Below, piece by piece: positions 15,708-16,044 of a DNA stretch of 64,000 nucleotides. A program made the translations under genes and the position numbers. This stretch comes from an uncultured Rickettsiales bacterium (lineage in GTDB: Bacteria > Pseudomonadota > Alphaproteobacteria > Rs-D84), in contig CAMWQN010000002.1 of assembly GCA_947176385.1 (NCBI GenBank), positions 8,245 through 72,244 on the forward strand. Direction: 5' to 3'. A model generated the notes under the pieces. That model worked only from the letters and a program-made list of their open reading frames with translations, was not told the DNA's origin and ran no database searches. Within the stretch, counting starts at the first letter, position 1. Each line of letters opens with the position of its first letter.

Positions 15708-15820
15708 TTGTAAATTACCTATCGATAGAAAATCCCCCGATTGGGGGATTTTTTATGTACATATTACGATTATCTGTTATTTGACACATGAAATAAAAAA
15801 CTAGATTTTATATACACTTA

Positions 15821-15829
15821 TGTTATAAT
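15821..15829 (+). promoter_or_regulatory. Extended -10 element TGtTATAAT
   Basis: Same TTATGTTATAAT string as at 3741-3752. The -35 element is weak. Confidence 0.45.
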
Positions 15830-15860
15830 GCAAATGTGTCAGAGGTTTCTGACACTGGAC

Positions 15861-16019
15861 TTAAGAATCCAGACGGTATACGTAAGAGATTACGACAAAT
15901 CTCCAACCCTATTTGTGGTTGGAGGTGTGTGAATAACGGCTTTGCCAAATAAACACAGCAATCTTATACTGTATTGTTCTTAAACTCCAACCACTTGAAA
16001 TTGTTTCCGGTGGTTTTTG
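15861..16019 (+). promoter_or_regulatory. Structured 5' leader C2 upstream of an HTH gene
   Basis: P1 is TTAAGAA (15861-15867) paired with TTCTTAA (15977-15983). Hairpin X1:X' is CTCCAACC (15901-15908) with GGTTGGAGG (15917-15925). X2 ACTCCAACC (15984-15992) overlaps the terminator AACCAC..GTGGTT plus T-run. Confidence 0.55.
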
Positions 16020-16044
16020 TTTTTTATATACACGGGGGATAAAT

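Follow-up and report, generated by a model that had tools for sequence, protein, structure and literature searches.

A family of C4- and sRNA-Xcc1-like leader RNAs in uncultured gut Alphaproteobacteria, with two predicted folds that may govern transcription termination

This report concerns C2, a leader element in the genome of an uncultured Rickettsiales bacterium. C2 lies on the plus strand of a 64,000-nt stretch of DNA (assembly GCA_947176385.1, contig CAMWQN010000002.1, positions 8,245 to 72,244), here called the window, from whose first letter all positions are counted. It occupies the space between the terminator of an upstream DsbA-like gene (15733-15747) and the gene that follows it, a 78-aa open reading frame (ORF). 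An initial annotation, made from the letters of the window alone, had described C2 as a promoter-proximal leader with an intrinsic terminator, and our analysis supports this description.

The individual elements are in place as well. The promoter string TTATGTTATAAT is found at 15818-15829 on the plus strand, with an exact second copy at 3741-3752, in a leader named C1. It is followed by the 5' hairpin GTGTCAGA-GGTT-TCTGACAC at 15836-15855, by a second hairpin, CGTAA-GAGA-TTACG, at 15881-15894, and by a hairpin formed from two strands designated X1 and X', CTCCAACC-CTATTTGT-GGTTGGAGG, at 15901-15925. The strands of a long-range helix, P1, are located at 15861-15867 (TTAAGAA) and 15977-15983 (TTCTTAA), and their pairing is real. 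A third strand, X2 (ACTCCAACC, 15984-15992), overlaps the terminator stem AACCAC..GTGGTT (15989-16015), to which the T-run TTTTTGTTTTTT is attached; the last four bases of X2 are the start of the terminator 5' arm. Transcription is predicted to start near 15836. A simple promoter/terminator scanner called neither the C2 promoter, which has no -35 element, nor its terminator, whose loop is longer than 8 nt; the placement of both was judged by family-wide statistics instead. The block GTWKTTCTTAAMCTCCARCC, proposed as conserved between C1 and C2, is exact in C1 and has one mismatch in C2 (A for G at the first base), and shuffled sequence yields no such match. The mean column identity of the C1-C2 alignment is 73%. 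The C2 leader folds with -63.5 kcal/mol (z = -5.99 relative to shuffles; for C1, z = -4.39), and positions 15917-15995 alone fold as a three-way junction of -21.6 kcal/mol. The coordinates of these elements are collected in Table 1.

Table 1. Elements of leader C2 and further copies of the leader in the window (positions count from the first letter of the window; R1, covariance model built from relatives)
Feature	Position	Strand	Basis
C2, extended -10, TGTTATAAT, within TTATGTTATAAT	15821-15829	+	sequence
C2, H0, 5' hairpin, RNA GUGUCAGA-GGUU-UCUGACAC	15836-15855	+	sequence and C2 fold
C2, H1, hairpin CUGGA / UCCAG; loop = a1 (P1 5' strand UUAAGAA, 15861-15867)	15855-15872	+	covariation
C2, b1, P2 5' strand ACGGUAUA; partner 15965-15972	15873-15880	+	C2 minimum-free-energy fold
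C2, Hopt, optional hairpin CGUAA-GAGA-UUACG	15881-15894	+	sequence; covariation
C2, X1, CUCCAACC, decoy partner of X'	15901-15908	+	covariation
C2, X', GGUUGGAGG, pairs with X1 or X2	15917-15925	+	covariation
C2, H3, hairpin domain; A-rich internal loop (GUGAAUAA ... AAAUAA); inserted distal hairpin GGC-UUU-GCC	15925-15958	+	stem covariation
C2, H4, hairpin CAAU / AUUG; loop = b' (P2 3' strand UAUACUGU, 15965-15972)	15959-15976	+	covariation
C2, a', P1 3' strand UUCUUAA; links H4 to X2 as ON-fold junction strand	15977-15983	+	covariation
C2, X2, ACUCCAACC, 3' strand of the ON-fold closing stem	15984-15992	+	covariation
C2, intrinsic terminator, stem AACCAC / GUGGUU (15989-16015), then UUUUUGUUUUUU	15989-16025	+	sequence and fold
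C2, Shine-Dalgarno GGGGGA (16034-16039); 78-aa ORF (16045-16281)	16034-16281	+	sequence
C1, short type (no Hopt); before a 108-aa HTH-like ORF (about 3945-4271)	3741-3920	+	R1, 91 bits
C3, no gene directly behind, C6 next	37104-37293	-	R1, 106 bits
C4, X type CUCCUGACC / GGCAGGAG; upstream of a 224-aa secreted Cys-rich protein	40912-41144	-	nhmmer; R1, 70 bits
C5, X type CUCCUGACC / GGUCAGGAG; upstream of a 231-aa secreted Cys-rich protein	22601-22827	-	nhmmer; R1, 60 bits
C6, divergent type CCCUGACU / GUCGGGG / CCCCGACC; own TTATGTTATTAT promoter; directly upstream of a 664-aa Cys-rich secreted protein (36782-34788)	36765-37020	-	R1, 24.8 bits, E = 1.6e-4
C7, divergent type CCCGACU / GGUCGGGG / CCCCGACC; upstream of a 231-aa secreted Cys-rich protein	820-975	+	R1, 25.8 bits, E = 9e-5
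C8, divergent type; upstream of an ORF starting MQKIFILPLILSVNSAFG (signal-peptide-like)	25875-26049	-	R1, 23.5 bits

C2 belongs to a large family of leader RNAs, about 170-190 nt in length, that had not been catalogued before and has no model in Rfam 15. A loose search with the conserved blocks recovered a third copy, C3, on the minus strand. A pattern was then built from C1, C2 and C3, and scanned over one genome per species; this pattern is biased to one type of X sequence. The scan identified at least 118 loci in 84 assemblies of metagenome-assembled genomes (MAGs), and 117 were left after removal of copies more than 90% alike. Further, divergent copies were added by an nhmmer profile and by a covariance model built from relatives (R1), in which C2 itself scores 87 bits (E ~4e-20), bringing the family to more than 140 copies in uncultured gut Alphaproteobacteria (Candidatus Enterousia / order Rs-D84). 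In nearly all cases the host MAG bears the label Candidatus Enterousia, uncultured Alphaproteobacteria or 'Rickettsiales'; the sources are gut samples of ruminants, horse, chicken, mouse and human. The Enterousia MAG JBKSMY, one of these hosts, is described in PMC12306168, which assigns the genus to the uncultured order Rs-D84, with genomes mostly smaller than 1 Mb. We found no literature on RNA in the Enterousia / Rs-D84 lineage. At the gathering score, a scan of the window with Rfam 15 returns only tRNAs. Scanning by E-value, whether with C1, C2, the three-way junction of C2 or the entire window, yields nothing relevant, and C1 and C2 are unmatched even at E <= 10. The family pattern has no match in viral contigs, nor does a BLAST search with one relative (L145) against phage genomes produce a match; a phage origin of the window copies was rejected on these grounds.

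The window alone contains at least eight copies (by R1, five strong and three divergent), or about one per 8 kb. C1 and C2 do share one leader design, as had been proposed; they are not a pair, however, but two of these eight or more. C3, which is of type 1 and has its own promoter and terminator, is followed about 80 nt further on by C6, i.e., two serial leaders stand before a single gene. Elsewhere, too, two or three leaders, complete or partial, stand in tandem (L077:2334-2999, minus strand; L099:365-792, plus; L101:2775-3180, minus; L055:2778-3118, minus; L068:3415-3766, plus). In L101, X2 of one unit doubles as X1 of the next.

The position of these leaders relative to promoters and genes is highly regular. 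A -10 hexamer that matches TATAAT in at least five of six positions is found 15-45 nt before hairpin H1 (mode 27-28) in 100 of 111 elements; 43 of these 100 hexamers have a TGn extension, and C1 and C2 are both of this kind. The median distance from X2 to the start codon is 51 nt, and 94 of 111 elements have the start codon within 65 nt. Because the terminator fills most of this space, there is no room for a second promoter, and the gene would thus be transcribed from the promoter of the leader. The orientation of the leader is always identical to that of the gene downstream.

The genes themselves are diverse, and the designation of C2 as an 'HTH-gene leader', i.e., one that precedes helix-turn-helix (HTH) genes, does not hold for the family. 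Signal-peptide-like N-termini are present in 54 of the 117 downstream ORFs, i.e., in about half, many of which are Cys-rich and without a Pfam match. About 50 of the 117 encode small proteins, and about a quarter of the downstream genes are of the XRE-type HTH class; among 43 distinct small downstream proteins, 23 match Pfam HTH_31 at E <= 0.01. The protein behind C1 matches HTH_31 with E = 0.005, below the threshold of that family. The 78-aa protein behind C2 can be aligned with seven homologues, which other MAGs encode after a leader of this family; for C2 and these relatives the matches are marginal (HTH_31, E = 0.12; PDB 5v5t, E = 0.005 with a profile). The C2 ORF encodes a putative divergent XRE-like protein. 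Short-type leaders before HTH genes, in the window (3700-3752) and at many other loci (e.g., L058, L080, L087, L109, L112), share a palindromic -35 region, ATTTGCAAAT (TTGCAA), to which the encoded HTH protein might bind as its operator. The proteins behind C4 (40216-40890, minus), C5 (21885-22580, minus) and C7 (1004-1699, plus) are 224-231 aa long, with signal peptides and many cysteines, and have in common the C-terminal region …YRCA(A/S)G(Y/F)YG…C..CP…(S/G)CY(L/I)…; all three are unmatched in Pfam. The C2-type leader appears to be the standard control cassette for many genes of secreted proteins and regulators in these tiny genomes.

More than 110 non-redundant relatives keep the helices proposed by the initial annotation, through compensatory changes. 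The minimum-free-energy folds of C2 and C1 consist of two stacked long-range helices, P1 and P2, around Hopt, the X1:X' hairpin and H3, with the terminator thereafter. P1 is formed by UUAAGAA and UUCUUAA (a1:a'), and P2, in C2, by ACGGUAUA and UAUACUGU (b1:b'). We refer to P1, P2, Hopt, X1:X', H3 and the terminator as the OFF fold. On a model-based alignment of the family, A6, 95.8% of the OFF set (P1, Hopt, X1:X', H3 and terminator) is paired; the covariation score is 0.383, versus 0.148 for shuffled alignments, none of 500 shuffles reaches it, and slid partners give at most 0.057. A6 was fitted to the OFF fold, so the OFF counts lean toward that fold; the counts for the helices outside the model used to align, described below, do not.

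Within the OFF set, P1 is paired in 98.4% of cases and all seven of its pairs covary. Its two strands occur as 46 and 35 distinct sequences, with a complementarity of 6.86 out of 7, as compared with 5.10 for shuffled partners. P2 is different in nearly every copy (more than 100 distinct sequences); the longest run of complementarity between its strands has a mean length of 7.9 nt, as compared with 4.8 nt for mismatched partners (maximum 5.07 in 200 permutations). Hopt, which is missing from C1 and from most copies of the HTH type, has three covarying pairs and is paired in 94.6% of cells. The X1:X' hairpin is 96.4% paired, and its variation is mostly wobble (UG in 18 and 20 sequences at the last two pairs). 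The stem of H3 covaries (pair 162:227 is GC in 52, UA in 36 and CG in 25 sequences), and so does the terminator helix, which is 91.6% paired across the family (pair 272:294, AU in 55 and GC in 55). At the position of H0 the relatives also have a hairpin, of different sequence.

The design originally described, with P1 and the X boxes, therefore stands, but it was incomplete: helix P2 and hairpins H1 and H4 had been overlooked. These elements covary, and they define a second, C4-like fold, which we refer to as the ON fold. RNAalifold, applied to an independent MAFFT alignment, chooses precisely this fold, i.e., H1, X':X2, H3 and H4, with X':X2 picked unprompted. On A6, the ON set is 96.0% paired, with a covariation score of 0.268 versus 0.122 for shuffled alignments; again, none of 500 shuffles reaches the score. 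The H1 stem covaries (pair 3:17 is GC in 69, AU in 23 and GU in 22), and its loop resembles a UNR turn: 112 of 118 sequences have U there, and 108 of 114 have a purine two positions on. H4 is paired in 96.2% of cases (pair 232:252, UA in 82 and AU in 30). X':X2 is paired in 98.3%; the ninth pair, 158:262, which lay outside the search pattern, covaries (GC in 100, UA in 10). X2 is nearly always a perfect partner of X', often longer by one base pair, whereas X1 tolerates wobbles. Downstream of X2 there is a short tail, RCC (A or G in column 272, C in column 273).

The X boxes were fixed in the first pattern, and their joint variation becomes visible in the divergent copies and in a scan of metagenomes anchored on the H3 loop. 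Across these, X1, X' and X2 change together through at least eight sequence types: CUCCAACC/GGUUGGAG; CUCCUGACC/GGUCAGGAG; CCCYGAC/GUCGGGG; UCCCGACC/GGUCGGGA; CUCCGGC/GCCGGAG; CCUUCC/GGAAGG; CUCUGCC/GGCAGAG; and CUCCUGCC/GGCAGGAG. This triple covariation confirms that X' can pair with either X1 or X2, the latter overlapping the 5' arm of the terminator, as had been suggested for C2. The same three-way constraint explains the strong conservation of the X boxes within one type. G-U pairs are abundant (UG in 44 sequences at pair 164:224) and pairs of the 'other' class are rare, which shows that it is the sense-strand RNA that has this structure. The constancy of GUGA and AAUAA in H3 is uninformative, because both were fixed in the genome search pattern; the H3 loop string GUGAAUAUAUUGAAUAA recurs in many copies and in distant relatives, and in the latter it was part of the search pattern. 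A K-turn in H3 was rejected by eye, since the strand beside the stem reads AA rather than GA, and an RfaH ops-like signal, GGCGGT, was rejected because the H3 stem covaries.

The metagenome scan produced five relatives with the full architecture (L119, L124, L125, L128 and L145; 25-103 bits with R1). Four of these (L119, L124, L125 and L145), which score 25-57 bits with R1, also resemble sRNA-Xcc1, a small RNA (sRNA) represented by Rfam model RF02221: L119 (two units), L124, L125 and L145 match it with 30.6-37.4 bits (E 0.002-0.07), and the alignment runs exactly from X' to X2. Among the metagenomic relatives the H4 stem is CCUG/CAGG instead. Three of them (L119, L125 and L145) are located before antirepressor-like (Bro-N-like) genes, as recognized by eye without a profile search. 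These three have no U-run terminator; copies of a1 and b1, again identified by eye, lie over the Shine-Dalgarno sequence and start codon. In L145, for example, a2 is CUUAAGA, b2 is AAUAGUGA and b1 is AAUAGUGC. In L119, a second sRNA-Xcc1-like unit (3232-3307, plus strand; 37.4 bits) directly follows the stop codon of an upstream ORF, and the order is second unit, U-rich tail, promoter, full leader and antirepressor-like gene. Other loci of the scan differ. A group of about 200-nt, mutually similar sequences (L127, L130, L143, L144, L146, L148) constitutes another family, which has the 20-mer GCGGTGAATATATTGAATAA without further leader elements. In L122, L129, L136 and L137 the same 20-mer is inside an apparent conserved coding region (…GGATGTTC(A/G)ATGGCGGTGAATATATTGAATAATATTGA…), most likely a chance match unrelated to the leader.

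How might these two folds be used? Covariation supports both sets of helices, and we infer that these form mutually exclusive folds. As in known attenuators, a G+C-rich hairpin with a U run lies between promoter and start codon, and the alternative pairing is conserved. We consider it likely that a module of the C4/sRNA-Xcc1 type has been co-opted as a cis-acting terminator/antiterminator attenuator with two alternative folds. The leader would be transcribed from its own extended -10 promoter. In the OFF fold, P1 (a1:a') and P2 (b1:b') would close a junction around the X1:X' hairpin and H3; X2 would be free, so that the terminator AACCAC..GUGGUU with its U run could form and transcription would stop about 30 nt before the ribosome-binding site of the gene. 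In the ON fold, a1 would reside in the loop of H1 and b' in that of H4, and X' would be paired with X2 as the closing stem of a three-way junction, which further comprises H3, H4, the junction strand a' and the RCC tail. The 5' arm of the terminator would thereby be removed, and RNA polymerase would read into the gene. Nested energy calculations favor the OFF fold by about 9-11 kcal/mol in 108 of 113 copies, C1 being an exception, with pseudoknots beyond what ViennaRNA scores; the default state is thus probably termination. Switching on would require something that occupies a1/b1 or X1, and the candidates are an RNA on either of these, a protein, a small ligand, or the kinetics of co-transcriptional folding. 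The antirepressor-linked relatives share the sensor part and have another output, i.e., a2/b2 over the Shine-Dalgarno sequence and start codon with no U-run terminator; in the window family, the decoy X1 and the intrinsic terminator would replace this a2/b2 target over the ribosome-binding site.

Several observations weigh against the attenuator. All of the evidence is sequence comparison. The same energies that favor termination leave the ON fold strongly disfavored in 108 of 113 copies, so that read-through needs a helper. Just 72 of 117 copies pass a strict hairpin-plus-U terminator test. H1 and H4 could coexist with P1 and P2 as loop-strand pseudoknots, in which case only the partner of X' would switch. 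As to the origin of the module, the similarity to RF02221 is below the gathering score of that model (53 bits), RF02221 has no match in the window (C2 is unmatched at E <= 10 on 111 nt), and the family model gives less than 6 bits on the c4 region of phage P1. Lastly, C3 has no gene directly behind it and some copies form tandem arrays (L077, L099, L101); both observations fit free-standing sRNA genes.

This last point leads to the alternative that survives best, namely that the copies are free-standing genes of trans-acting sRNAs, in which the terminator always works, an RNA of 85-180 nt is the product, and this RNA base-pairs with other mRNAs; the position before a gene would be incidental, or serve co-transcription only. 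Besides C3 and the tandem arrays, which recall the five tandem copies of sRNA-Xcc1 in Xylella, this alternative is favored by the known relatives: sRNA-Xcc1 is a discrete RNA considered trans-acting, and C4 acts as an antisense RNA according to the P1 annotation. The U-turn-like loop and the variable a' and b' are likewise typical of antisense RNAs. However, the start codon is within 65 nt of X2 in 94 of 111 elements, leaving no space for a promoter, and the gene depends on read-through; a' and b' have perfect partners in cis; and an X1/X'/X2 switch that overlaps the terminator would have no purpose in a plain sRNA gene. We regard this alternative as unlikely, although in part it is compatible with an attenuator, and a leader may do both jobs.

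A variant of the attenuator assigns the trigger to RNA. A U-turn-like loop that presents a1, together with highly variable addresses, is a feature of antisense-RNA recognition. The C4-like RNA of a locus, terminated or processed, might pair in trans, through a' and b', with the a1 and b1 of the same address on nascent leaders, the H1 loop being among the targets; this would block the OFF fold in cis and cause read-through. In such an address-coded RNA-RNA network, an almost unique b address per copy would give each gene its own self-sustaining ON/OFF state. If true, this would amount to RNA-based, DNA-independent phase variation for dozens of surface-protein genes, in a genome of less than 1 Mb with few transcription factors. 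We consider a network of this kind rather improbable.

Two other triggers have little specific support. In a metabolite or second-messenger riboswitch, the P1/P2 junction and H3 would be the aptamer, and a ligand would choose between X1:X' and X':X2. The complex multi-helix fold, the A-rich internal loops, the clear expression platform, and the existence of two kinds of platform among the relatives are what one would expect of a riboswitch, and riboswitches for cyclic di-guanosine monophosphate (c-di-GMP) likewise occur in many copies per genome before genes of surface proteins and regulators. Yet there are few invariant unpaired nucleotides, most of the sequence conservation is explained by the three-way pairing of the X boxes, the H3 loops vary by subtype (GUGAAUA..AAUAA versus UAUAAAACA..AAAG), the downstream genes (secreted, HTH) provide no metabolic clue, and the architecture fits an antisense-RNA module; we give this reading very little credence. 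Even less probable, in our estimation, is a protein-dependent attenuator, in which a dedicated RNA-binding protein, possibly from among the small HTH-like products of genes after short-type leaders, would set termination by binding X1:X'/H3 or single-stranded X1. Small XRE-type proteins are encoded behind about a quarter of the leaders, so that autoregulation could arise, and a default OFF state by energy calls for a helper; but XRE HTH domains bind DNA, the X boxes covary freely and so offer no fixed recognition sequence, and no candidate protein was identified.

That the element is a repeat at the DNA level (an integron attC-like site, a miniature inverted-repeat transposable element (MITE), or a recombination cassette that shuffles surface-protein genes) seems extremely improbable and was rejected: CTCCAAC / GTTGGAG superficially resembles the R''/R' boxes of attC, integron cassettes of Xanthomonas contain sRNA-Xcc1, and in systems that vary by recombination a conserved 5' cassette can stand in front of variable surface proteins, but the G-U pairs that are kept would be A-C mismatches on the other strand, the orientation to the gene is fixed with the element 5' of it and a promoter and terminator built in, other X types lack AAC/GTT, and viral contigs are unmatched. 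Leader-peptide attenuation was also rejected, since the small ORFs of C2 (15828-15932 and 15836-15952) have no counterpart in C1 or C3, in agreement with the initial annotation, which had noted that upstream ORFs are not conserved, and since by eye the frames through GUGA..AAUAA differ. A T-box-like mechanism, or mimicry of a tRNA end by CUCCA, was dropped because other X types have no CCA.

Two further features of the window may be mentioned. ARAGORN reports a tRNA-Ser(act) at 14617-14695 on the minus strand, inside a RecO-like ORF (14149-14814); the Rfam tRNA model does not support this call, and it is thus probably a false positive. At 62217-62445 there is a cluster of weak Rfam matches on both strands (Leu, Trp and Phe leaders, TD-1, BSnc120; 20-28 bits), probably a strong bidirectional terminator-like hairpin.

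If our interpretation of C2 as an attenuator is correct, more than 140 copies in 84 species-level genomes constitute a large new family of structured RNA that Rfam 15 does not detect, and an antisense module of the phage C4/sRNA-Xcc1 type now serves on a chromosome as a general cassette for transcription attenuation. It would also provide an initial insight into how genes are regulated and surface proteins expressed in Candidatus Enterousia / Rs-D84, whose members are uncultured, live in the guts of livestock and humans, and have reduced genomes. The two-fold design, with its clear compensatory evidence, lends itself to tests in vitro.

The closest parallel in architecture is the immI region of phages P1 and P7 (RF01695; the c4-a1b1 motif of Weinberg 2010). 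In the annotated P1 record the order is promoter, a1, b1, the 77-nt C4 RNA, and then a2 and b2 over the ribosome-binding site of icd. The fold of C4 comprises a closing stem, a first hairpin, a second hairpin with b' in its loop, the junction strand a' and an ACC tail. The window family has a promoter, a1 then b1, and a three-way-junction RNA in the same order; its b' is also in the loop of the second hairpin, its a' is also single-stranded before the 3' strand of the closing stem, and both are complementary to the upstream b1 and a1 on one transcript. In addition, the tail is unpaired (RCC in this family, ACC in P1), the RNA is co-transcribed with the gene that follows, and the a and b addresses vary between copies. 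The metagenomic relatives L119, L125 and L145 also have a gene context of the antirepressor type and, like P1, a2/b2 over Shine-Dalgarno sequence and start codon. The window family differs from P1 in that it adds the decoy X1 and an intrinsic terminator that overlaps the closing stem, is chromosomal and massively multi-copy, and precedes genes of secreted and HTH proteins instead of icd/ant; its window copies are not associated with an antirepressor gene in a prophage immunity region, and viral contigs contain no match. P1-like a2/b2 targets downstream of the window terminators were rejected, because element-specific complementarity downstream of X2 is at the level of the control (7.52 versus 7.51). 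Nor does RF01695 match the window. Direct homology to P1 C4 was set aside, since the family covariance model does not find it and similarity at the sequence level is undetectable; what the comparison shows is a common architecture. In P1, ACGCCC just upstream of C4 (48318-48352 of the P1 sequence, L150) can pair with GGGCGU, the 5' strand of the closing stem; it may be the counterpart of the decoy X1, although six base pairs could be chance. Hartmann and colleagues are said to have found, in 1995, that C4 depends on RNase P. The P1 record annotates a1 and b1 merely as putative target sites of C4; comparison with the present family suggests for them a possible role as partners in cis, keeping the RNA in an inactive conformation.

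The second parallel is sRNA-Xcc1, an RNA of about 88 nt in Xanthomonas (PMC2996969), where it is found upstream of symE in integron cassettes (bioRxiv 10.1101/2025.06.18.660453). It also occurs upstream of an ORF6N protein in APSE phages, and in Xylella it is present in five tandem copies and, in a prophage, beside isrK and C4 (PMC12189769). The RF02221 fold, a three-way junction with a closing stem of about 9 bp, two hairpins, a single-stranded junction segment and a short tail, is that of the ON fold from X' to X2, and the family has all of these parts, a same-direction gene downstream, and tandem arrays. However, H0, H1/a1, b1, X1 and the separate terminator of the window family lie outside RF02221, and sRNA-Xcc1 is described in the literature as a discrete, trans-acting RNA of about 88-100 nt, and not as an attenuator.

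The third comparison is with leaders of the terminator/antiterminator/anti-antiterminator type, i.e., riboswitch platforms, T-box and trp-type attenuators. Like these, the C2 family has three competing segments (X1, X', and X2 with the terminator arm), an antiterminator strand that overlaps the 5' arm of the terminator, and its own promoter directly before the gene. It differs from them in having no conserved leader peptide, tRNA-binding specifier or recognised ligand pocket; the sensing part of the C2 family looks like an antisense-RNA module with address segments that are complementary in cis.

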